DNA of 61,736 nt, taken from Patescibacteria group bacterium (GTDB lineage Bacteria > Patescibacteriota > Microgenomatia > UBA10105 > UBA927). The DNA lies in contig JAHJMO010000001.1 in NCBI GenBank assembly GCA_018821245.1, positions 1 to 61,736 on the forward strand. The letters run 5' to 3'. Of the stretch, positions 5 to 28,121 are shown piece after piece (the stretch's first letter is position 1; every line of letters starts with the position of its first letter). A model generated the notes under the pieces. It had not been told where the DNA came from and did not search any database. It saw nothing but the letters and a program-made list of their open reading frames with translations. Made by a program: the position numbers and the translations under genes.

Positions 5-907
5 ATGAAACGGCGTCACTTTGAAAACATTCCTGCGATACAATCTGTGGAATCGTATTTTCAGAAAACGCGCGGGTATGTTGTTGCCATGCCAAAACCA
101 GGAGAAAAAATTATCCTCTTGACCTCGGGAGGCCTGGACTCTACCATCGTCTGGTATCTCCTGATGAAGCAATTCCGGCTGGTTGTCTATCCGCTCTTCG
201 TCGGAAGCAACCCGTTTCATCCCCAACGCAAATCTCTTTATTACTTTTCTCACTTTTTTGAGAAAGAATTTGAAAAACAGTATCGACCCCCTTTCGTTAT
301 GAGTCAACATCTCGTTGCTAAAGAAATAGACACATTAAAGAAAACGAAAAACATACACTCCAAAATACTCCTTAATATGTATGCTGACAAACGCTTAGAT
401 TGGGGGCTGCTCCACATCGCAGGACTCAATGCGCTTACCCCGATCTCTGCCATCCTCTATAGCAAATACTTGCTCCTCACAAAAAATCTTACCATTCATA
501 CGATTGTCTGTGCGGTAGCCGCCGGCGATGGTACAGTCATAAAGAGCCAAACATTTTCGTTTCTGCGTACCACCATGTTTTTTCTCTCTCAATTTTTCCA
601 AGATCGCGAACTTCAGTTTTTTTCACTCCTTTTGGATAAAAACCTGGGGTACTTCATAGAAAAAGCCCAGCTCATACAAATCGGTGCCCGGCTTGGGCTG
701 CCCATCCACAAAACGTATAGTTGCTATACTGGAAAAACATTTCACTGCGGACAGTGCCTGGCGTGTCAGGCGAGAAGGTATGAATTTGGTAAAGCAAACG
801 TCACTGATCGGACGATTTATACCGACAGTCTTGTCCGAAAAATTCAATTAGTGAAAAATAAAATAAAATCTATCGTCAAACGCATTTTTGTCAAACATCA
901 CAAATAA
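5..907 (+). CDS. QueC-like PP-loop ATPase (adenylating enzyme), probably not a true QueC
   Basis: SGGLDS PP-loop motif and C-terminal Zn site CYTGKTFHCGQCLAC. The QueC YPDC motif is replaced by TVIKSQT. Confidence 0.8.
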   Translation: MKRRHFENIPAIQSVESYFQKTRGYVVAMPKPGEKIILLTSGGLDSTIVWYLLMKQFRLVVYPLFVGSNPFHPQRKSLYYFSHFFEKEFEKQYRPPFVMSQHLVAKEIDTLKKTKNIHSKILLNMYADKRLDWGLLHIAGLNALTPISAILYSKYLLLTKNLTIHTIVCAVAAGDGTVIKSQTFSFLRTTMFFLSQFFQDRELQFFSLLLDKNLGYFIEKAQLIQIGARLGLPIHKTYSCYTGKTFHCGQCLACQARRYEFGKANVTDRTIYTDSLVRKIQLVKNKIKSIVKRIFVKHHK

Positions 908-910
908 GTG

Positions 911-939
911 TTGACAGACATATTCCCGCGCTGTATTGT
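911..939 (+). promoter_or_regulatory. sigma70 promoter for the small peptide and PqqD gene
   Basis: TTGACA (911-916), 17-bp spacer, TATTGT (934-939). SD-like AGGGGGGTGA follows at 951-960. Confidence 0.7.
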
Positions 940-971
940 AAGAATACAGAAGGGGGGTGAATACATTAAGC

Positions 972-1058
972 ATGAAAACACCGAAACGAATCTACAAAAA
1001 ACCAGCGGATAAAAAAATTAAACTGCGCGCCGTCTTAATCATACCTGAGGCTGTGTAG
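972..1058 (+). CDS. Putative RiPP precursor peptide, 28 aa: MKTPKRIYKKPADKKIKLRAVLIIPEAV
   Basis: Translated by hand (below the ORF-track cutoff). Has a promoter, an SD and a YxxP leader motif, and lies 25 bp upstream of a PqqD gene. Confidence 0.7.
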   Translation: MKTPKRIYKKPADKKIKLRAVLIIPEAV

Positions 1059-1083
1059 TAAACAGCATTTAGCATACCGAGAA

Positions 1084-1344
1084 ATGAAACTCCGCAGAAA
1101 TCCAAGCGTCTACTCCAAAAAAGTTGACGGCAAGTGGCTGATTCTCGAACCCGATAAACAGCACATCCGGGAGTTAAACGAGACTGCCGATTTTGTTTGG
1201 GGGGCAACACAAAAACCCATCGAAGTTTCAACGATAATAAAGCGCCTTGCCAAGGCATACCTCCTTCCGCCGGAACAATGTAAAAAGGACGTCGAAGAAT
1301 TTGTACGCCGATATTTGAGGGAAAAATTGCTTCTTCCTGCCTAG
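1084..1344 (+). CDS. PqqD family / RiPP recognition element (RRE) protein
   Basis: 86 aa with LNETADFVW ... LAKAY ... DVEEFVRRYLREKLL, the typical PqqD pattern. Confidence 0.85.
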   Translation: MKLRRNPSVYSKKVDGKWLILEPDKQHIRELNETADFVWGATQKPIEVSTIIKRLAKAYLLPPEQCKKDVEEFVRRYLREKLLLPA

Positions 1345-1695
1345 CGGTATCCACCGGCCACCCCTCTTTACCTCTGTTGCAATACCGATAAAATCCTCTT
1401 CTTCGACAATCCATGGATCCGGACGGACAACCGCGTCTCCTTTGGTTTGAAAAGTTATCTGTTTGCCGAAGTGATTGATCTTTATAATACGGTGGATAAC
1501 AAGCGTACGATGAACAGGAGAAAAATACACTGCCATTTGTCGGCGCGAAACGCACGAAAGGAGCACCCGTTGTACGCGCACCTGCTCGCCCGACCGAATA
1601 GTTGGGCGCATGCTTGCTCCTCGCGCAGTTACAATAACCCCTGCTCCCGGAGGAAGTTGTCTGATAAAATAGAACCATCTGTCTTTTGTCGGCAT
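1228..1695 (-). CDS. S24/S26 family (signal peptidase I-like) peptidase
   Basis: GASMRPTI, VIHRII and TKGD motifs. No obvious N-terminal TM anchor. Confidence 0.8.
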   Translation of the reverse strand: MPTKDRWFYFIRQLPPGAGVIVTARGASMRPTIRSGEQVRVQRVLLSCVSRRQMAVYFSPVHRTLVIHRIIKINHFGKQITFQTKGDAVVRPDPWIVEEEDFIGIATEVKRGGRWIPLGRKKQFFPQISAYKFFDVLFTLFRRKEVCLGKALYYR

Positions 1696-19976: not shown

Positions 19977-21080
19977 ATGAACATATCCCTTCTTCAGGAA
20001 AATTTATTAAAAGCGCTAACGAGAACAGGAAGAATTGTCTCAACCCGTCCCCAAATTCCGATTGCAGGAAACGTTCTTTTGGATGCAAAAAACGGAGGTC
20101 TAAGTATAACCAGCACAAACCTGGAAACATCAGAAACGGTTTGGGTTGGAGGAAAAGCGGAAAAAGAAGGATCTGTGTGTGTTCCATCACGCCTTCTTAC
20201 GGAGCTCGTTTCTTCCTTTCCTGCCGAAACGGTTCATCTGGTTGTGAAAGATGAGAAAATCCACATTTCGTGTTCGGGTTTTTCAGCAACGATTCCCGGG
20301 GTTCCGGCAGGGGAATTTCCTCCTGTTGAACCGCCACCCAAAGGAGGAGAAAAAATTAACAAGGAAACGCTGGTTGGGGCGCTGTCTCTCGTGTTGTTTG
20401 CCGCTGCCACAGACGAGGGGAGGCCGCTTCTGACCGGCATAAAGATGGTGTCTGGGGATGGAGGCACGACGCTGGCCGCCACAGACGGGTATCGTCTGTC
20501 AACGAAGACAATTGCTTTTTCATTAAAGCAATCAACCGACATGGTGATCCCGGCAAGAACACTGTCTGAAGTATTAAAAATTTCTTTGGAAGAAAAAGAC
20601 GCGAAAGACGTAGTTGTTACCGCAATAAAAGACGGACAGCTTATCTTTTCCATAGGGGACACCAACATTATGACACGCCTTATAGCAGGGGACTATCCTG
20701 ACTATAAAAAAATTATTCCAAAGGCCTTTAACACACGTGCGCTCCTTGAGAAAGAACCGCTTGCCCGCGCCGTAAAGTCAGCGGCGATATTTGCCCGCGA
20801 CAATGCAAACATTGTTCGTTTTACGCTCGACAAACAGAGAGTTATTGTGTCAGCAAACACACCAAACGTTGGAGAAAACAGGATAGAAATTGACGCAAAA
20901 ATTGACGGAGAAGGAGGGGAGATCGCGTTCAACAGCAGGTTCCTTTTGGAGTTCCTTTCGGCTTTCCCGGGTGACGAGGTTTTATTTGAAATGACCGGCG
21001 CCCTAAACCCCGGGGTCTTTAGGCCGGTTAAGGACGACTCATATCTTCACATCATCATGCCCGTCCGGATCACCTCGTGA
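19977..21080 (+). CDS. dnaN: DNA polymerase III beta clamp
   Basis: ATDGYRLS, RLIAGDYPDY, IAFNSRFL and IIMPVR motifs; follows dnaA. Confidence 0.98.
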   Translation: MNISLLQENLLKALTRTGRIVSTRPQIPIAGNVLLDAKNGGLSITSTNLETSETVWVGGKAEKEGSVCVPSRLLTELVSSFPAETVHLVVKDEKIHISCSGFSATIPGVPAGEFPPVEPPPKGGEKINKETLVGALSLVLFAAATDEGRPLLTGIKMVSGDGGTTLAATDGYRLSTKTIAFSLKQSTDMVIPARTLSEVLKISLEEKDAKDVVVTAIKDGQLIFSIGDTNIMTRLIAGDYPDYKKIIPKAFNTRALLEKEPLARAVKSAAIFARDNANIVRFTLDKQRVIVSANTPNVGENRIEIDAKIDGEGGEIAFNSRFLLEFLSAFPGDEVLFEMTGALNPGVFRPVKDDSYLHIIMPVRITS

Positions 21081-21103
21081 TAAACTGGCGGGCGGATGTG
21101 CCC

Positions 21104-21661
21104 CTAACGGGCGTTGCCCCCGGTTAATTCAGACGTGGAGTATCCCCGAAATTCAGGCAACAGAAGAATCGTCCCAAGGGGGGCGGGCTTAAAATACCAC
21201 ACTTCATAAACCACGTCAGATGGCTCGTTGGCCAGAAAAGCAACCCCCAGATCGGCGAACGCAAACACGTACTGACCGTAAGCAGACTCTCTGCCGTATA
21301 ATTTGACGCCCTGTCCTCCAACCAATGCCAGCCTGGACGAGAGCGAGGCGCTTTGCGTGGCAAACACATGTTCGCGAACGAACGAAACGACATCGTCGCG
21401 CACGACAACGGTAGTGTCCCAATAGGAGCTTTCTCCCTGGTAATACATTTTGGATTCGTCGGTACCCAAATCAATTTTTTTGGGTTGACCCAAACGTTCA
21501 ACAACATCACCCTGCGTATCCCCGGGCCCTATACCCATCCACGCAGCCTGCGGCGGCGGTAGCGGCGTGGAGGAGGGCGGCGGCTTTGGGCGGGAGAGGG
21601 AAAGAAAACCGACAACAACACCCGAAATAACTATTAAAAATAAAAACAACAGTCTTTTCAT
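21104..21661 (-). CDS. Secreted or membrane-anchored hypothetical protein
   Basis: Signal or TM segment MKRLLFLFLIV, Pro-rich linker, then GIGPGDTQGDVVERLGQP. Starts 7 bp after the zincin gene. Confidence 0.6.
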   Translation of the reverse strand: MKRLLFLFLIVISGVVVGFLSLSRPKPPPSSTPLPPPQAAWMGIGPGDTQGDVVERLGQPKKIDLGTDESKMYYQGESSYWDTTVVVRDDVVSFVREHVFATQSASLSSRLALVGGQGVKLYGRESAYGQYVFAFADLGVAFLANEPSDVVYEVWYFKPAPLGTILLLPEFRGYSTSELTGGNAR

Positions 21662-21668
21662 ATGTTTA

Positions 21669-24092
21669 TCATCGCCGTCCGCACGAAGAAGACGAAGGCG
21701 ACGACATCCCAAGAACACATTCGGCAAACTCAAAATGGCGAGGGAGGCTTTGTTTCAGAGCGCTGGCACCAACGACATATTGTGCCAGTGTTTCTGCAAA
21801 ATCCTCGCCCACGCTACTCCCCGCGTATGGCGTACTTCCCTCACTCATAATGCCCCAGCCCTTGAAATCTGTAAACCAGTGCGACCCGCTCACCCCGTGT
21901 CCGAGCTCGTGGGTTATGATAAATAATATATGTGCAACGCCGCCGTTATAAATATATATATTGCCGCCTGATTCCGTACACCCCCAGTATGTTCCCGACC
22001 AGTTAATGCGGTATACCCGTACGCCCTGTGGACTAGAGGAGTCAACGAGCGCCATAAATTGAGGATAGCTGTTTCTCAGTTTTGCAAACGCGCCCAAAAC
22101 AGACGCCCATTCGCCCGGCGGCCAGGACACCGACGCACCGTCTTTATTGCAAGCGGCGGATACCGGCTGTATCCCGGCCTCCCCCGCAATGGCGGTTCCC
22201 ACGGTTGGTGACCCAACAACAACGCTTGTGTTTATACTCTTTTCCTCGGCTGAACCTTCGGCAGTGGTTGCCCTGACGGTAAGCGTGTTTACGATAATTG
22301 CGTCGCGCACCCCGGAAACGCTAATTGCGTAGGAAACAGACCCTGATTCTCCGGGGGACAGCGTTTTAATCGCGGAAAAATCTCCCGGGGAATCGCCGCT
22401 TATGGCGCCGCTTCCCCCATACGTTTCAAACGTGTCAGATACGGTTATGTCAAAAAGCTCTTTTTCTTTAGCGGCAACAACAATGGTGTATGTGATGGGT
22501 TGACTTGCCCCGTTAGGAAGACTGCCCGCCGAGGGGGTTTTGGTGGCTTCTATATACCGCGATCCGGGTTCATTTGTTGACTGCCGGGAAAGAGACACAC
22601 CAAGCGCACTTGTGCGTGCGGTGTCCTGCATCTGGGGGAAATTGAGAAAGGAGGGAAAAATGAACAAAAGCACAATTACCGCCACGGGGATGAGCGCGTA
22701 AAGAGTCGTGTTGTCTTTGGTGGATCCTGTCGGCGACCCTCCTCCAAACGTGCTTTTTGCCCAGTCGGATATGGCCCCGGTCGTTGGCAAAAGGCCTGGC
22801 AAAAATCCGCCGCCAAAGAATTTGGCAGCAGCATTTTTGAGAAACGAGACGATGGGCTTAATCAAAAACGAAGCGGCAGCCGCGACCCATCCCCACGGGC
22901 CGGAAAGGCCTTTAACAGTAAGGGTTAGTCCGGTCTTTATTACCGCGGCGACCGTAAGTTTTTTTGCGCCCTCTGCCGCCACGGCGCCGGCCACGCGCGT
23001 CGCACCCTCTTTTGCAGCATGCTTAACCCCACGACGCATGATCCAGCCGACCACATCGCTCAAAAATCCCAAGTGAAAAAAGTGGGGCTGCGATGCCGCA
23101 TATCCAAAATTCCACCACGTTATGCGGGAGGTATAAAACTGGGCGCTCTCGCCAAGCATTGCAAGCCGAAGATATGTCAGCGTGGCCTCGTCTGCCTGTG
23201 GGCGGAAAACGGTTGACGCAACATCGCCAACCACGTTTCGTATTCCTCCGAAAAGCCCCTTTAGTCCGCCCGGCTGTTTTCCAAACGCCGCGTTACCCCG
23301 TGCGATAGTTTGGATAATCGCCGGGGATCGTGCGGCGGTTCCAATAATCTGTTCGGCCCTGAACGCGGTTTTTTGCCAGGATTCATAAAGAATTTTATAT
23401 GCAGCATTATCTCCTCCAATAATGTCAACCAAAGGAGCAAGCAGTTTTTGCGGAATGGTTTTGGCCGCCGCGCGGAAAAAGACACCAGAAAGAGCGGGCC
23501 GGCCGGGTTCGCTTTCAGGAAGGGACGCAAACGCTTCGGCGGCACGGGCAAGTTTTTCTGCCTCGACAAACGGCGTTGGCGTATCCGGGTTTTGCCGCTT
23601 GAGTAAGAGGGCGACATCAAACAATATGTCTTTTCTTATAACCTCAGACATTAGAACGCCTCTGGTTATCTCGGACATTTCGAGATGCTCTGAGACCGCG
23701 TTTTGCAGGGAGACAGCCTCCTCCTCCGATAAGACCGTTCCCTGCGCACGAAGATTTCGGACGTATGCCACGGTCAGCTCGTGCGCAAACTTGCGCGCCG
23801 GGCGGCGCGCCGAAGCCCCTTTTTGTGTTTCCGGAGGGTGAAGGCGGGCGGCGACAGATGTTGCAAGCGCGTCCGGAACGACCGAGTCAATACTTTCTTT
23901 GGCGAACCCCTCTTTTCTGCTTTGTAAAGCGATTTTATTTATAAACCGCTCCACAGCCCCCCGCACCCGTTCGTCTCCCAAAAACCATGAGCCGATTTTG
24001 TCAAGTTCTCCGGCCAGCACGCGATAATCGTCAGGATACGCACCTTGTGCAAAAAGAAGCAATTGTACTGTTTCAGCGTCTTGTTTTGCCAT
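21669..24092 (-). CDS. T4SS-associated membrane protein with Ig-like domain and C-terminal zincin metallopeptidase domain
   Basis: Gly/Ala-rich hydrophobic segments, a TM helix, a DUF11-like beta domain and HELGH...EDFAE. Confidence 0.6.
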   Translation of the reverse strand: MAKQDAETVQLLLFAQGAYPDDYRVLAGELDKIGSWFLGDERVRGAVERFINKIALQSRKEGFAKESIDSVVPDALATSVAARLHPPETQKGASARRPARKFAHELTVAYVRNLRAQGTVLSEEEAVSLQNAVSEHLEMSEITRGVLMSEVIRKDILFDVALLLKRQNPDTPTPFVEAEKLARAAEAFASLPESEPGRPALSGVFFRAAAKTIPQKLLAPLVDIIGGDNAAYKILYESWQKTAFRAEQIIGTAARSPAIIQTIARGNAAFGKQPGGLKGLFGGIRNVVGDVASTVFRPQADEATLTYLRLAMLGESAQFYTSRITWWNFGYAASQPHFFHLGFLSDVVGWIMRRGVKHAAKEGATRVAGAVAAEGAKKLTVAAVIKTGLTLTVKGLSGPWGWVAAAASFLIKPIVSFLKNAAAKFFGGGFLPGLLPTTGAISDWAKSTFGGGSPTGSTKDNTTLYALIPVAVIVLLFIFPSFLNFPQMQDTARTSALGVSLSRQSTNEPGSRYIEATKTPSAGSLPNGASQPITYTIVVAAKEKELFDITVSDTFETYGGSGAISGDSPGDFSAIKTLSPGESGSVSYAISVSGVRDAIIVNTLTVRATTAEGSAEEKSINTSVVVGSPTVGTAIAGEAGIQPVSAACNKDGASVSWPPGEWASVLGAFAKLRNSYPQFMALVDSSSPQGVRVYRINWSGTYWGCTESGGNIYIYNGGVAHILFIITHELGHGVSGSHWFTDFKGWGIMSEGSTPYAGSSVGEDFAETLAQYVVGASALKQSLPRHFEFAECVLGMSSPSSSSCGRR

Positions 24093-24099
24093 AGTGTTT

Positions 24100-25938
24100 T
24101 CAGGCTAGCGGTGATTGTTGTTCATCGGAAACAGTCTCTACGGTAAACGTCGGCCGGCCCTCCTTTCTTGCTTCAAGTTCCTGAGGCCTGGTGTTTGACA
24201 GCTCGTGTTCCTCGGGGCTTGCAATGACGCGCATAGAGGCGTGAGCGGGGCCGGCAAAAAACAGCCCCTCGCCGACGCCCGCGGAAAGAAGGAGCTGTTT
24301 TTCTCCCTCTGATAAATAAAACACACCGGCAACCTTGTCGATTGCGGCGGATGATTGTTTGAGCAATATCTGCATGCTGCTGTTTTGGATGATCGCGCGG
24401 CCAAGCTCAACAGACAGAAAATCCTCAACGTCTTGGGTAATGGTGGTTAAACCCAGATAGTATTTGCGCGCCCGCTTGGCAATGGAATACAAAAACTTTG
24501 CGCTGTCGGGAAACTTCATGAGGTACCACGCCTCATCAACGACCAAAATCCGGCGTTTTGTGTCGCGTCGGATCTTTGTCCAAATATAATCAAGGACAAG
24601 ATACATGGCGATCGGACGAAGTTCTTCTTCAAGGTCCCGGATCGAAAAAACCGTCAGCGGGTTGCGGATCTCTACATTTGTCTGCTGGTCAAATATTCCA
24701 ACAAGGCTTCCTTTGACAAACTTTTCAATGCGGTCAGCAAGCCCTCGCGCAAGCGGCTCTTCCATCCCCACGAGGGTTTTGTAGAGATCTTCCATAAGCG
24801 GCGGTTCCTTTTTTTGTGTCTCCGGGTCCGGGGTAATGCCTTTTTGTTTGTATGTAAGGACAAGCGCTCGGTCCAGGATGGCGTCTTCAGATGGCGTCAG
24901 ATTGCCCATAACTACACGAAAAAACCCATGGAGCGACAAAATTTTTTGATTAAGCTCGCTTTCCACCTCGTTTCTACTCACAAGGGCCAGATCAAACGGG
25001 TTGATTTTTGTGGTGGCGCCGAAATGAAACCTTATGTATTCTCCGCCCAGGGCATGAGATAGCGCCTCATATTCACTCTCCGGGTCAATGACAATCACCT
25101 CTGTCTCAAACATGAGGGAGCGTACAATCTCCAGCTTGATGAGATAACTTTTGCCTGAGCCGGATTTACCAAAGACCACGGAGTTTGCGTTCTCCAGGGA
25201 AAATCGGTCAAACACAATGAGCGAGTCGTTGCCTGAATTTATACCGTACAGAATTCCTTCGTTTGCGGAAAGCTCGGAGGTCGTAAACGGGAACGTGGTG
25301 GCCAGGGACGTAGTGTCCATGTTTCGCGCTACAAGAAGCCGGTCTTGCCCCATGGGAAGCGTGGTTTTGATCCCCTCTTCCATTTGGAGAATTGCGCGTT
25401 TGCTGACAATGAGAAGAGAGGAGAGTGTTGCCTCAATCTGTTTTGTGGTTTTATCCAGATCGGCCTTTGTTTTGGCCGGAATCGTAACATACAGGCCGAA
25501 TTGGAAAAAGCGTTCCGCCCCTTTTGCCAACTCTTGTTGTAGAGAAAGAGCGTCTTCAAGCGCGACTTGTACCGATGGTTCAATTACGCGCCCGCGCTTC
25601 ATGTCCGACTGGATGGTTGCCTCCATTTCGCCCACCTTTCGCTTAAGGTTTTCCAAAACCTCTTCGGAACGCGTAGGGAAGACATACATGGCAATTTCCA
25701 GCGTGTGGTTGAACGAGATGAGCGGCTCGAGCCAGTTGGCGCTGACAAACCGCGGATATCCGGCAACAAACAGGGTGCGGTAATACCAGTCGCCAATCTT
25801 GAGGCAGTCAAAGTCTACCTCGATTGCCGGAGGGGCAATGACGTCTTTAATCAAAAGCGGACCGTGCGGGACCTGTGTCAGCGGATTTTTCCCCGCGCCG
25901 GAGTCAAGAGGCTTTTTGAAAAATGTTTTTAGGTCCAT
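24100..25938 (-). CDS. VirB4/TraC-like T4SS ATPase
   Basis: Walker A GKSGSGKS, VIDPESEY, INPFD, Walker B VVDEAW, and KRARKY motifs. Confidence 0.92.
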   Translation of the reverse strand: MDLKTFFKKPLDSGAGKNPLTQVPHGPLLIKDVIAPPAIEVDFDCLKIGDWYYRTLFVAGYPRFVSANWLEPLISFNHTLEIAMYVFPTRSEEVLENLKRKVGEMEATIQSDMKRGRVIEPSVQVALEDALSLQQELAKGAERFFQFGLYVTIPAKTKADLDKTTKQIEATLSSLLIVSKRAILQMEEGIKTTLPMGQDRLLVARNMDTTSLATTFPFTTSELSANEGILYGINSGNDSLIVFDRFSLENANSVVFGKSGSGKSYLIKLEIVRSLMFETEVIVIDPESEYEALSHALGGEYIRFHFGATTKINPFDLALVSRNEVESELNQKILSLHGFFRVVMGNLTPSEDAILDRALVLTYKQKGITPDPETQKKEPPLMEDLYKTLVGMEEPLARGLADRIEKFVKGSLVGIFDQQTNVEIRNPLTVFSIRDLEEELRPIAMYLVLDYIWTKIRRDTKRRILVVDEAWYLMKFPDSAKFLYSIAKRARKYYLGLTTITQDVEDFLSVELGRAIIQNSSMQILLKQSSAAIDKVAGVFYLSEGEKQLLLSAGVGEGLFFAGPAHASMRVIASPEEHELSNTRPQELEARKEGRPTFTVETVSDEQQSPLA

Positions 25939-25944
25939 ACTGCG

Positions 25945-26607
25945 TTATGTTTCCTGTCGCGGGAGCTTTTCCGGTTTTTCTATCTCTGGCGCCGGATCCT
26001 CCGGGTTATAGACGGAGAAAAACAGCCGTACAATTTGGTCGCTTGTCAATTGGTGAGCCTGAAGCCCTACGCGCGCCAAAAGCCTGAGAATGTGGTCGCG
26101 TCTTGGCGTAAGGGCCGTAAGCGCCCGTTCAAAAATATATGGCTTTTGGTACGGAAGCCCCTGTTTTTTCCCGCCAAGCAACGACCGCGCAGATAACCCA
26201 AGCTCAATGGCAGAAAAGGGGACGATGATATAAAATTTTTTGTCAAGGACATCCCTTTCTTTAACCGTTGTCGCGACGAACGACCGGTATTTGTGTATGC
26301 TCTCGGCAAGTTTGGGGCTTTTCTGTTTTTGTTCCTGCTCCTCAAGAAGGCTTAGATACGCCGAGATATCTTTATGGCGTGTTTGGATAAGAAGCTGAAT
26401 CGGGAATGAAAGCGAATTGAGAAACCCTGCATATGCATATATGATTGCGTCCTGCTCCTTTTCCGACAGAAGCCCGAAGTTGACGGCAGATGTGGCGATA
26501 ATAAGCGCGCATGAACCATCGCAAAAAAGAACGATATCTCGATCGACATCCTCTATTTCTGTAAAAACCTGCGTTGTTGATCTGATGGGCGCAATGGGTT
26601 GGGACAT
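25945..26607 (-). CDS. VirB4-associated conserved protein (resembles the TraC/ConE N-terminal region)
   Basis: VNFGLLSEKEQ...FLNSLSFPIQ; lies between the PrgI and VirB4 genes. Confidence 0.65.
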   Translation of the reverse strand: MSQPIAPIRSTTQVFTEIEDVDRDIVLFCDGSCALIIATSAVNFGLLSEKEQDAIIYAYAGFLNSLSFPIQLLIQTRHKDISAYLSLLEEQEQKQKSPKLAESIHKYRSFVATTVKERDVLDKKFYIIVPFSAIELGLSARSLLGGKKQGLPYQKPYIFERALTALTPRRDHILRLLARVGLQAHQLTSDQIVRLFFSVYNPEDPAPEIEKPEKLPRQET

Positions 26608-26615
26608 AATGGTTT

Positions 26616-27977
26616 TTATATTCCCTGGTTTCCAAAAATCTCTTTTTCCAGTTTTTCCCGGGTGAGCTCTTTTTGACTTTTGGCAAGGATTTCAATCGGC
26701 GGTAACACGCGGCCGCCAAGCGTTATCTGGGCTTTATCAAATACATATCGATCCCGGGGGTCTTCTACCTCAACGATGTATGTTCCATCCGGAAGGGGAG
26801 TAGAGGCCGCAAACTGACCAAGCTTATTGCTTTTGAGCGCTCTCAAGGGTACGCCGTCTTTGTCGCGCACCGTGATAAGCACTCCCGGTAGAAGTCCGCC
26901 CTCGCCGTCTTTGATAATGCCGGTAACAACGTTTGGAAAAGACGTCAGGCGCGGGATACCGGCTTTGACTGCGGCGTCCTTTGGAATCACGCGCACCGTA
27001 GGCCCTTTTGTGGCGGGTTGGGCGAAGCGCCCGGGAGCGGAAAAAGACCCGCGTCCAGCAAGCGGGGGTACGGCCCCCATAAAGGGCCGTTGAGCGCCCG
27101 GCATTGGCGGATACATGGGCGACGGCGGCTGCGATGCTTTTTTGTGAAGCGCCGCAAGCTCCTGCTCCAGCTTGTTTTTCTCAGACAATGTTTGCGCGAG
27201 CTGTTTTTGCATCTCAGCCATCTGCCCTTCGCTTGCAGCTTTAGCCTGAAGCTCAACCCTAAGCCCTTGGAGCTGCTTTTCCAGATCCAGGGTTTTTTGT
27301 TGGATCCTGTCGGCGCTTTGTGTGCTGTTTGGCGCCACACCTTCTGTCTCCGGGTGCTGTTGTCCCAAGCCCTGTTTATACCTCGCGGCATCCCGCCAAT
27401 CCGTTTGTATGGTTGGGTTTCCGAGAAACCAGTCTTTCAGCCACCTAAAGGGGTTGTACATGGGTAGCGGTACATTTTTCGACGGGTTCCCTGCCCCCTC
27501 GGTATCGTCTCCGGATGTTTGTTGGTCAGATCGTGGAACGCGAAAAAACGTATCCAAAAGCTGCGCCTTTGACGCAGTAGCCCCCCCGTTGTTTGATTGG
27601 TCTTGAGAGACGTTTGCCGACCCGCGATAAGGAGCCTGTGATTTTCTCCCGGCTTTGGGCACCACTATTGTTTTGGCGCTTGGGGCTTGTTGTCCCCTCT
27701 GCCACACATACTGCGTGGGACTATAGGCACTTTTAAAAAAGGAAAGAACCCACACGTCCATCGGCCGCTCTTCTATTGGAACAAATGCAAAGCCCACTCC
27801 CAGAAGTCCAAATCCGGCTGCGATCGGCCAGGTGAAAATTGTCGGCAAGGGGAGCTTATAGGATATATATGCACAAATTGCGCCCAAAGCCAGATACCCG
27901 AACTGTTTGAGGGTCATGTCGCCGATGAGGCGAAATTGAAACGTTGATACATTTTGAGGAACAGGGTGTTGCTCCAT
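26616..27977 (-). CDS. PrgI family (VirB3-like) protein with coiled coil and carboxypeptidase-regulatory-like C-terminal domain
   Basis: HPVPQNV...FRLIGDMTLKQF, two TM helices, EERPMD, coiled coil, then a beta-sandwich. Confidence 0.8.
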   Translation of the reverse strand: MEQHPVPQNVSTFQFRLIGDMTLKQFGYLALGAICAYISYKLPLPTIFTWPIAAGFGLLGVGFAFVPIEERPMDVWVLSFFKSAYSPTQYVWQRGQQAPSAKTIVVPKAGRKSQAPYRGSANVSQDQSNNGGATASKAQLLDTFFRVPRSDQQTSGDDTEGAGNPSKNVPLPMYNPFRWLKDWFLGNPTIQTDWRDAARYKQGLGQQHPETEGVAPNSTQSADRIQQKTLDLEKQLQGLRVELQAKAASEGQMAEMQKQLAQTLSEKNKLEQELAALHKKASQPPSPMYPPMPGAQRPFMGAVPPLAGRGSFSAPGRFAQPATKGPTVRVIPKDAAVKAGIPRLTSFPNVVTGIIKDGEGGLLPGVLITVRDKDGVPLRALKSNKLGQFAASTPLPDGTYIVEVEDPRDRYVFDKAQITLGGRVLPPIEILAKSQKELTREKLEKEIFGNQGI

Positions 27978-28121
27978 ACAAACAAAATATTTGAACCACT
28001 GTCATTGTAAAAGGTTATTGGGGGTGGCGCAAGTATGACAAAGCGCATTTGGATCGTGAAAACGACTATTTTTCTTTTCACGCGCGACATTACTCATCAA
28101 TAGGGTCGTTATTGTGATATC

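Follow-up and report, generated by a model that had tools for sequence, protein, structure and literature searches.

In lasso peptide clusters, a short precursor with a Y-x-x-P leader motif and an Asp or Glu at position 7-9 of the core, for ring closure (A), is encoded together with a stand-alone PqqD-type RiPP recognition element (RRE; B1), a transglutaminase-like leader protease (B2; PF13471), an asparagine-synthase-like PP-loop enzyme (C; PF00733) that activates a carboxylate, and an ABC exporter (D). Related asparagine-synthetase-like enzymes, such as PesC of the nitrilobacillins and TsrC and ScdTA, use ATP to act on the C-terminal carboxylate of a ribosomal peptide, converting it to an amide and further to a nitrile, which is also the chemistry of QueC, the 7-cyano-7-deazaguanine synthase (PMC13060819). 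Members of the QueC family can also act on proteins: Cap9 of type IV CBASS and QatC of QatABCD attach a 7-deazaguanine acid to a protein N-terminus within phage-defence systems, with Cap10/TGT-like or QatB partners. In PQQ biosynthesis, the very short precursor PqqA (about 20-30 aa) is bound by the chaperone PqqD, and in the peptidase-containing ABC transporters of bacteriocins a C39 leader peptidase is located at the N-terminus of a TMD-NBD half-transporter, so that cleavage and export can be coupled.

Here we analysed a stretch of 61,736 nucleotides (the window; contig JAHJMO010000001.1, positions 1 to 61,736, of assembly GCA_018821245.1) from a Patescibacteria group bacterium, in which a small, previously unannotated gene for a 28-residue peptide is located between genes for a divergent QueC-family PP-loop enzyme, referred to as QueCL, and a PqqD/RRE protein, with a gene for an S26-type peptidase converging on them. 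This arrangement, first described in a sequence-only reading, was confirmed in all four elements. The accompanying interpretation as a RiPP-type system was only partly supported, as the evidence strongly favors the general design but not all of the proposed chemistry.

The locus and the upstream half of its operon

The open reading frame of QueCL (5-907, + strand) matches Pfam QueC with an E-value of 5.4e-15, but represents only the 3' part of the gene (1-907 of the window). The first 141 nt of the window are identical to the reverse complement of the start of a second contig of the same genome, C11, on which the family-typical N-terminus continues. The ATG is located 18 codons (54 nt) upstream of window position 5, 49 nt before window position 1, and overlaps the stop codon of the preceding gene as ATGA, resulting in a full protein of about 318 aa. 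Contigs of two sequencing runs bridge the junction, although these runs may be the source of the assembly. Contig C11 also carries the rest of the operon, which the sequence-only reading could not see: a TagH/Wzt-like ABC-2 exporter, a Methyltransf_24 methyltransferase and, immediately upstream of QueCL, a spermidine-synthase-like (SpeE-like) gene.

QueCL harbors an SGGLDS loop and a Cys-x7-Cys-x2-Cys-x2-Cys motif. Structural modeling by AF2 (pLDDT 86) predicted a QueC fold, the best matches being the QueC structures 2pg3 and 3bl5 (TM 0.69-0.71, normalised to the QueC structures). Compared to canonical QueC, QueCL is about 100 residues longer, with an N-terminal helix, an insert at 100-145 and a long C-terminal helix in the model.

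The small ORF (972-1058, + strand) encodes 28 aa and gave no family hit. The peptide has a basic N-terminus, an invariant Y-x-K-P motif, an amphipathic strand-like stretch and a short variable C-terminal tail. A 28-codon ORF is not unusual in itself, as 85 ORFs of 25 aa or more occur in the first 6 kb, and it is the conservation across loci that makes this one more than chance. It is preceded by a promoter-like site, TTGACA-17-TATTGT (911-939, + strand), matching 10 of 12 positions. However, the same scan identified four sites in the region against 1.7+/-1.3 in shuffled sequences, so that the site alone is not significant. A G-rich Shine-Dalgarno-like stretch (948-960, + strand, with the G-rich run at 952-959) is located about 12 nt before the ATG, which is rather far. 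No RNA run holds the stretch, and expression of the peptide is inferred from sequence alone.

The PqqD gene (1084-1344, + strand; 86 aa) matches Pfam PqqD with an E-value of 3.5e-13 and is the only PqqD in the genome. The S26-type peptidase gene (1228-1695, - strand; 155 aa) converges on PqqD and overlaps its 3' end by 117 nt. The protein, predicted to be a soluble Ser-His peptidase of the SipW/archaeal type, scores 53.2 bits against NCBIfam TIGR02228 (cut-off 51.85), and the SMxP, HR and GD boxes are present in 17 of 17 aligned homologues. It lacks the membrane anchor that would place the active site outside the cell, as the highest 19-residue Kyte-Doolittle mean is 0.85, compared to 2.0-2.3 in membrane controls.

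A conserved peptide family linked to QueCL, PqqD and S26

Comparative analysis demonstrated that the 28-residue peptide belongs to a family of 54 distinct peptides in 44 non-redundant loci, of 20-30 aa in most loci. Frames were included only if they matched [YFW]..P, so that the proline is a selection criterion; the aromatic residue is tyrosine in all 54, and both Tyr and Pro were independently invariant in an alignment of 21 sequences. In 48 of 54 peptides the C-terminus lies 13-19 residues after the proline, while the C-terminal residue itself is not conserved. The profile is specific to these loci: in 775 kb of control DNA the best score was 10.3 bits, whereas 51 frames in family loci scored above that. 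In comparison with a 76%-identical relative, L115, the ORF shows six synonymous and four non-synonymous codon changes, and the -35 and -10 hexamers, the Shine-Dalgarno-like stretch and the ATG are kept while the surrounding spacers have diverged.

Among 67 non-redundant loci with a QueCL gene, 47 have PqqD, 38 S26, 36 the methyltransferase, 34 the ABC ATPase and 36 a profile-detected peptide; among the 35 loci with at least 1.5 kb on both sides, the corresponding numbers are 27, 24, 25, 24 and 22. PqqD lies next to the peptide gene in most loci, and the Y-x-x-P peptide is its most tightly linked neighbor. However, 20 of the 67 loci show no PqqD; eight of these form a separate clade, most with several kb of flank on both sides, and one member of the family is fused to a Ham1 NTPase. 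The enzyme family as a whole is therefore not restricted to peptide substrates.

Natural gene fusions tie the parts together. QueCL and PqqD lie in one frame in five loci and are fused in 8 of 10 long family members tested; 42 of the 150 best representatives are 390 aa or longer. One protein, P0041, is a fusion of QueCL to an S24/S26 domain, and in 15 of 67 loci the S26 peptidase is fused to the ABC ATPase, which also argues for a cytoplasmic location of the peptidase.

A group-II PLP decarboxylase occurs in 15 of 49 PqqD-type loci and lies immediately upstream of QueCL in 8 of 48, but none is present in the genome studied here. Of the same 49 loci, Bac_transf occurs in 10, GT2 in 10, Wzy_C (O-antigen-ligase-like) in 6, RGP in 4 and GT1 in 4, and in one locus, L125, a single frame holds GT1 plus an S24/S26 domain. 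Together with the upstream half of the operon, these genes, which were likewise out of sight of the sequence-only reading, widen the range of possible products.

Comparison with described systems

The cluster logic resembles that of lasso peptide clusters. However, a profile search of the genome, which is 97% complete, returned no hit for Asn_synthase and none for Transglut_core3; the enzyme is of the QueC family (PF06508), the protease is S26, and the exporter is an ABC-2 Wzm/Wzt-like pair. The peptides are far shorter; five of 54 have no Asp or Glu at all and seven of 54 have none after the motif, so that the position required for ring closure is not general. PqqD scores best against the lasso-type PqqD models, with 34.5 and 21.2 bits, which is below their cut-offs of 80 and 70. 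The PQQ-type model TIGR03859 was hit at 9.6e-6, below its cut-off, and no PqqE radical SAM partner lies nearby: the four radical SAM genes of the genome are all located on other contigs.

The nitrile-forming RiPP enzymes belong to a different enzyme family, and their partners are MNIO and M16 peptidases acting with precursors that carry a conserved R(V/T)DN C-terminus, while the tail is variable here. The corresponding study treats QueC only as a small-molecule nitrile synthetase, and its main text mentions neither PqqD nor RRE (PMC13060819).

QueCL is not a canonical QueC. The substrate motifs YxQxHxxE, VPxRN and YPDC (as defined in PMC13329287) are present in 1, 0 and 0 of 26 sequences, respectively, TIGR00364 scores 44 bits against a cut-off of 150, and no GTP cyclohydrolase I (FolE; PF01227), QueD (PF01242) or TGT (PF01702) was identified in the genome. 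In contrast, SGGxDS is retained in 23 of 26 and the Zn-type motif C-x7-9-C-x2-C-x2-C in 22 of 26, although with the exact x8 spacing in 0 of 26. The closest solved sequences are Cap9 (7e-11) and QatC (2e-4), ahead of QueC itself (8e-4). However, the QatC model scores only 25.2 bits (cut-off 280), the deazaguanine pathway and any TGT-family gene are missing, and the partner is an RRE with a 20-30 aa peptide. With regard to the peptidase-containing bacteriocin transporters, the peptidase is likewise physically joined to the export ATPase in the fused loci, but it is S26 (Ser-His) and is located at the C-terminus of a separate NBD of an ABC-2-type exporter.

The conditions that the sequence-only reading had named as potentially refuting its proposal did not do so: the small ORF is conserved, the enzyme is not a true QueC beside queDE, and the upstream genes include neither a radical SAM enzyme nor a nucleotidyltransferase. 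Its statement that no lasso cyclase, B2 protease or radical SAM gene is visible in the window held, and searches of the literature found no description of this system.

Inferred maturation route and its meaning

Sequence and comparison establish that the peptide family exists, that it is linked to the PqqD/RRE, QueCL, the S26 peptidase, the methyltransferase and the ABC-2 exporter, and that these parts are also joined by natural fusions. All that follows on binding, catalysis, cleavage and export is inferred from knowledge of the protein families. In the most plausible view, the locus is the 3' half of a conserved operon for maturing and exporting a small ribosomal peptide. The RRE would bind the basic Y-x-K-P leader as an added beta-strand and present the peptide to QueCL, which would use ATP to adenylate a carboxylate. 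As some peptides carry no acidic residue and the C-terminus sits at a fixed distance from the motif, this is most likely the C-terminal alpha-carboxylate. The acyl-adenylate might then be captured by ammonia, giving an amide and, after a second ATP as in QueC, possibly a nitrile, or by an amine made by the neighboring spermidine-synthase-like or PLP-decarboxylase enzyme, giving a C-terminal alkylamide; the latter variant cannot rely on the decarboxylase in this genome. The methyltransferase would add a further modification, and the cytoplasmic S26 peptidase would cut the peptide as it is handed to the exporter, similar to the bacteriocin transporters. We consider a peptide-maturation system of this general design probable and hold the explanation as a whole with moderate confidence, whereas the assignment of the reaction to the C-terminal carboxylate remains tentative. 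The sequence-only reading had proposed that RRE and S26 remove the basic leader, which so far is an inference, and that the enzyme activates a Glu side chain or the C-terminus to give a macrolactam, amide or nitrile. A Glu side chain cannot be the general site of activation, given the peptides without acidic residues, and a lasso-like macrolactam through a side chain is therefore unlikely to be the reaction of the family.

Among the alternatives, which all appear unlikely, the one that survives best is that the peptide supplies the amine rather than the carboxylate. As in Cap9 and QatC, QueCL would adenylate a small-molecule carboxylate and transfer it to a lysine side chain or to the new N-terminus left by S26 cleavage. 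Cap9 and QatC are the closest solved sequences and both target protein N-termini, the C-terminal D-x-T-x-Y stretch after the Cys motif aligns with QatC, lysines occur throughout the peptides, and an S26 cut would expose a new amine. However, the known acyl donor, 7-carboxy-7-deazaguanine, cannot be made here, the CDG-binding motifs are absent, the fixed distance from the motif to the C-terminus is not explained, and the neighboring decarboxylase and aminopropyltransferase-like enzymes make amines, not acids.

Slightly less likely, the cluster might mainly be a surface-glycopolymer pathway (sugar transferase, glycosyltransferases, capping methyltransferase, Wzm/Wzt exporter), in which QueCL amidates a sugar acid with a decarboxylase-derived amine and the peptide, PqqD and S26 play only an accessory or regulatory role. 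The ATPase and permease match the glycopolymer exporters TagH/Wzt and Wzm best, related loci often carry the glycan genes listed above, the window continues with a flippase and glycosyltransferases, contig C11 carries a Bac_transf gene, and the pairing of a decarboxylase with an ATP-dependent amide ligase recalls capsule amidation. Thus, the true substrate or final product may involve a glycan. In contrast, the fusion of QueCL to the RRE in many members points to a peptide substrate, PqqD domains are not known to be other than peptide binders, the peptide is tightly linked to PqqD, S26 is fused to QueCL in P0041, and the glycan genes are less constant than the five core genes.

A lasso-like or other macrolactam, formed after removal of the leader by S26 between the new N-terminal amine and an Asp or Glu side chain or the C-terminus (head-to-tail), is doubtful. 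The layout of the cluster parallels that of lasso systems and 32 of 54 peptides have Asp or Glu in the last six residues, but the cyclase and the B2 protease are absent, some peptides lack acidic residues, the PqqD scores are far below the lasso cut-offs, and the part left after any plausible leader is about 10 residues or fewer, too short for a threaded lasso. Equally improbable, but not excluded, it might be speculated that the peptide is not a free natural product but the handle of a surface conjugate, in which QueCL amide-links the C-terminus to an amine-bearing group, such as an ethanolamine- or polyamine-type group made by the decarboxylase or SpeE-like enzyme, on a glycan or glycolipid, and the S26 domain on the Wzt-like ATPase trims the leader during export; this would be a bacterial, ATP-driven counterpart of GPI-type C-terminal anchoring in lipid-poor ultra-small bacteria. 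That the small ORF arose by chance and the QueC-like gene is an ordinary queuosine gene merely lying next to unrelated genes, as the frequency of short ORFs, the promoter scan and the lack of RNA evidence might suggest, is in effect refuted by the conservation and coding-type substitution pattern of the ORF, the specific profile, the fusions and the absence of the queuosine pathway and QueC substrate motifs.

RiPP classes are defined by their maturation enzymes, and we found no report of a QueC-family enzyme recruited by an RRE or of an S26 peptidase fused to an ABC-2 ATPase as a leader-cleaving exporter. The system is thus a strong candidate for a new RiPP-type class, largely in Patescibacteria, and the cluster recurs in many ultra-small groundwater bacteria. 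If confirmed, it would add a new class-defining enzyme to peptide natural-product biosynthesis, extend the recent finding that QueC scaffolds can act on polypeptides beyond phage defence, and give a testable route to C-terminally amidated, alkylamidated or nitrile peptides. It would also be one of the few dedicated secondary-metabolite or surface-modification systems in Patescibacteria, whose small genomes rarely keep non-essential operons. The family is small but real, with 238 clusters at 50% identity (E<=1e-30), and its patchy distribution, in 16 of 87 genomes of the order, suggests an accessory, ecologically relevant function.

Gene neighbourhood and its upstream continuation

An ORF listing together with inspection of the sequence confirmed the four neighbours at the left edge of the window that the sequence-only reading had described, and its observation holds. 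A QueC-like ORF is located at 5-907 (+), with a Pfam QueC match at 5.4e-15, while the NCBIfam model TIGR00364 yields only 44 bits against a cut-off of 150. It is followed by a 28-codon ORF at 972-1058 (+) without any family hit and by a PqqD gene at 1084-1344 (+; Pfam 3.5e-13). On the opposite strand, 1228-1695 (-) encodes a 155-aa S26-type peptidase, which scores 53.2 bits with TIGR02228 against a cut-off of 51.85. The PqqD and S26 genes converge and overlap at their 3' ends (1228-1344), by 117 nt here, by 93 nt in locus L115, a 76%-identical relative, by 114 nt in locus L113, and by about 18 nt in several other loci; a convergent overlap is also found in L012 and others. This arrangement could allow antisense or translational interference. 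A promoter-like TTGACA-17-TATTGT site is located at 911-939, although the scan as a whole is not significant, with 4 sites compared to 1.7+/-1.3 in shuffled sequences.

The window represents contig C3 of a 1.08-Mb, 97%-complete genome, and its first 141 nt equal the reverse complement of the start of contig C11. Read in that orientation, C11 carries in one direction an ABC-2 permease, a PD-(D/E)XK gene, an ABC ATPase, a Methyltransf_24 methyltransferase and a membrane-anchored spermidine-synthase-like protein, which are followed by the missing N-terminus of the QueC-like gene. This N-terminus matches the family consensus, and its ATG, 18 codons upstream of window position 5, overlaps the stop codon of the spermidine-synthase-like gene as ATGA. 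The join is supported by a 59-kb metagenomic contig of one run that spans the junction and by an 8.2-kb contig of another run that ends inside the window, although both runs may be sources of this assembly. Similarly, L115 has the same spermidine-synthase-like to QueC-like order. No radical SAM enzyme or nucleotidyltransferase lies upstream. The ATPase and permease match TagH/Wzt and Wzm models best, below the equivalog cut-offs, and a search of PDB sequences with the methyltransferase and with S26 gave nothing usable. The PD-(D/E)XK gene (PDDEXK_3, 3.8e-34; locus L003 on C11, 2594-3004, minus strand) sits between the permease and ATPase genes, which are adjacent in related loci, and is thus probably an insertion. 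On the same contig, an 856-aa protein (L003, 5347-7917, minus strand) gives only partial SecA DEAD-like and SecA P-loop hits and may be a divergent SecA-like ATPase.

The DNA sequencing runs found to contain this stretch are groundwater metagenomes, and no RNA run containing it was found, so that any expression of the small ORF would be an inference from sequence alone. Comparison to the metagenomic reads and contigs revealed no variants inside 952-2000. In contrast, in contigs of the three runs X1, X3 and X4 the stretch 820-951 is replaced by about 133 other bases, with the window sequence resuming at 952, just before the peptide gene. The exchanged stretch covers the 3' tail of the QueC-like gene, the promoter-like site and the first bases of the Shine-Dalgarno-like stretch, which looks like strain-level cassette variation. 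Further into the window, at 20000-28000, the G+C content rises to 0.50-0.545, compared to 0.39-0.45 in the first 15 kb.

A QueC-family enzyme without the queuosine pathway

The QueC-like protein (QueCL) belongs to a small family, with 26 full-length relatives in a set of 5.8 billion proteins and 238 representatives at E<=1e-30 among 1.84 billion. Of 87 genomes of the order, 16 carry the gene, all of them in one family. A look-up in a protein atlas named only generic QueC clusters. The family retains the PP-loop (SGGxDS, 23 of 26) and a four-Cys Zn-type motif (22 of 26), but lacks the substrate motifs that have been defined for true QueC (PMC13329287): YxQxHxxE is found in 1 of 26, VPxRN in 0 of 26 and YPDC in 0 of 26. 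The AF2 model (pLDDT 86) retrieves QueC structures first, but carries about 100 extra residues. By sequence, the nearest solved proteins are Cap9 and QatC, the two QueC homologues that modify proteins. The genome has no QueD, TGT or GTP cyclohydrolase I; based on this and on the missing substrate motifs, we have rejected a reading as canonical QueC. It also has no asparagine-synthase-like gene, no B2-type protease and a single PqqD, and its four radical SAM genes are located on other contigs. Based on the absence of the former two and on the composition of the peptides described below, membership in the lasso peptide systems was likewise rejected.

The association of the enzyme with peptides has limits. 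Twenty of 67 non-redundant loci show no PqqD; many of these are contig ends, but eight form their own clade in a tree built by a quick search, most with several kb of flank on both sides. Four of the 67 loci, with QueCL frames under 250 aa, were left out of this tree. A PqqD-less branch of the same enzyme family (locus L010 in the genome G005, contig C34, 1131-3912; protein P0145) lies next to a DAP/N-citrylornithine-decarboxylase-like gene and a Ham1-like NTPase, and one representative is fused to a Ham1 NTPase, hinting at a nucleotide or small-molecule substrate for that branch. Thus, the enzyme family also has non-peptide branches.

A conserved peptide family and its linked genes

To determine whether the small ORF is conserved, loci were collected from species-representative genomes, from metagenome contigs and from the joined locus of this organism, which gave 78 loci with a QueC-like gene, or 67 after merging those at least 97% identical. 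In most of them, a small ORF of the same kind lies between the QueC-like gene and PqqD, or directly upstream of PqqD. In an alignment of 21 sequences Tyr and Pro are invariant, as Y-x-x-P. The full set comprises 54 distinct peptides in 44 non-redundant loci. As a purely pattern-based scan gave false positives inside other genes (for example in the loci L104 and L112), the counts rest on a profile, plus nine frames that were picked by pattern and position. Tyr is the aromatic residue of the motif in every peptide, and the Pro is preceded by Lys (29) or Ala (19). The peptide length is 20-31 aa in 45, 34-37 aa in three, and 43-53 aa in the six of the fusion clade, and the number of residues following the Pro is 13-19 in 48 of 54, most often 15. 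The profile scores at most 10.3 bits in 775 kb of control DNA (29,289 frames), whereas 51 frames in the family loci exceed this score. Compared to L115, the ORF shows 6 synonymous and 4 non-synonymous codon changes, and the -35 and -10 hexamers, the G-rich ribosome-binding stretch and the ATG are kept, while the spacer and the downstream non-coding sequence have diverged. Several loci carry two tandem peptide genes with different C-terminal tails, and the loci with a fusion of QueC-like and PqqD have the longer peptides (43-53 aa) with a second conserved acidic-x-x-L-L-A stretch near the end (loci L097/L098, L023, L124, L132, L149 and L154).

Among all 67 loci, PqqD was found in 47, S26 in 38, the methyltransferase in 36, the ABC ATPase in 34 and a profile-detected peptide in 36. 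Among the 35 loci with >=1.5 kb on both sides, the corresponding counts are 27, 24, 25, 24 and 22. Gene fusions provide stronger evidence than adjacency. QueC-like and PqqD domains share one frame in five loci and in 8 of the 10 long family members tested, which were drawn from the 42 members of 390 aa or longer among 150 listed representatives. A further member (P0041) joins the QueC-like domain to S24/S26. In 15 of 67 loci the S26 domain is fused to the C-terminus of the ABC ATPase, as confirmed by Pfam in the loci L018, L097 and L103. The SMxP, HR and GD boxes of S26 are kept in 17 of 17 homologues. The domain has no membrane segment and would therefore have to act in the cytoplasm. A structure prediction for the complex of QueCL with PqqD yielded scores of 0.04 and 0.01 against a mark of 0.32, which counts neither for nor against binding.

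Additional neighbours recur among 49 PqqD-type loci. A group-II PLP amino-acid decarboxylase, for which the nearest models are histidine, tyrosine/aspartate and serine decarboxylases, all below cut-off, occurs in 15 and lies directly upstream of the QueC-like gene in 8 of 48, whereas the present genome has no Pyridoxal_deC gene. The spermidine-synthase-like gene occurs in 7-10 loci, including this one. Genes for a sugar transferase (10), GT2 (10), Wzy_C (6), DUF4330 (6), RGP (4) and GT1 (4) also recur. The S24/S26 domain shares one open frame with a GT1 glycosyltransferase in locus L125 (5366-6931, minus strand) and with a GDSL hydrolase in locus L102 (4610-6181, minus strand); however, these are stop-to-stop frames, and two adjacent genes in the same frame are not excluded. 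When the type of C-terminal tail was compared to the presence of the decarboxylase, the spermidine-synthase-like (SpeE-like) gene or the methyltransferase, all SpeE-linked peptides were seen by eye to have an acidic residue near the end, but since the loci are close kin and many contigs are cut, we draw nothing from this.

Proposed maturation route and relation to known pathways

While the conservation of the peptide family, its linkage to the neighbouring genes and the gene fusions are results of sequence comparison, the way in which the system might work, including binding, modification, cleavage and export, is inferred. By analogy with other RRE systems, PqqD would bind the basic Y-x-K-P leader and its strand-like continuation and deliver the peptide to the QueC-like enzyme. 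PP-loop enzymes of this superfamily adenylate carboxylates; as five of 54 peptides have no acidic residue and the C-terminus sits at a nearly fixed distance from the motif, the C-terminal carboxylate would, in this view, be the only universal candidate. Capture by ammonia would give an amide, and a second ATP-dependent dehydration, as in QueC, would give a nitrile; both outcomes are now known for asparagine-synthetase-like enzymes in RiPPs (PMC13060819). The amine-forming enzymes that so often sit directly upstream suggest an alkylamide as an alternative. S26 would then cut the peptide at the transporter. We consider the general design likely, but activation at the C-terminus remains a tentative proposal. 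The interpretation offered by the sequence-only reading is partly supported. Among the rival explanations, a Cap9-like reaction in which the peptide provides the amine is unlikely but survives best, followed by a pathway centred on a glycopolymer, while a macrolactam appears least probable of the three.

In literature searches and in the main text of a recent PF06508 survey, we found no description of an RRE-linked QueC-family enzyme, of this peptide family or of S26-ABC fusions. The searches, judged mostly from listed titles, retrieved for QueC and RiPPs only the report on nitrilobacillins as relevant, and nothing on RiPPs for QueC-like enzymes. No paper was retrieved that combines PP-loop enzymes with RiPP recognition elements or 7-cyano-7-deazaguanine synthase with a precursor peptide, and a narrower combined search was equally empty. 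Searches on PqqD-containing RiPP systems in Patescibacteria and on QueC together with PqqD returned only papers that were unrelated or not relevant by title. The main text of the PF06508 survey (PMC13329287) does not contain the words PqqD, RiPP or peptide, although its supplementary neighbourhood tables could mention this group. The logic of the system, consisting of a precursor, an RRE, an ATP enzyme, a protease and an exporter, is that of known RiPP pathways.
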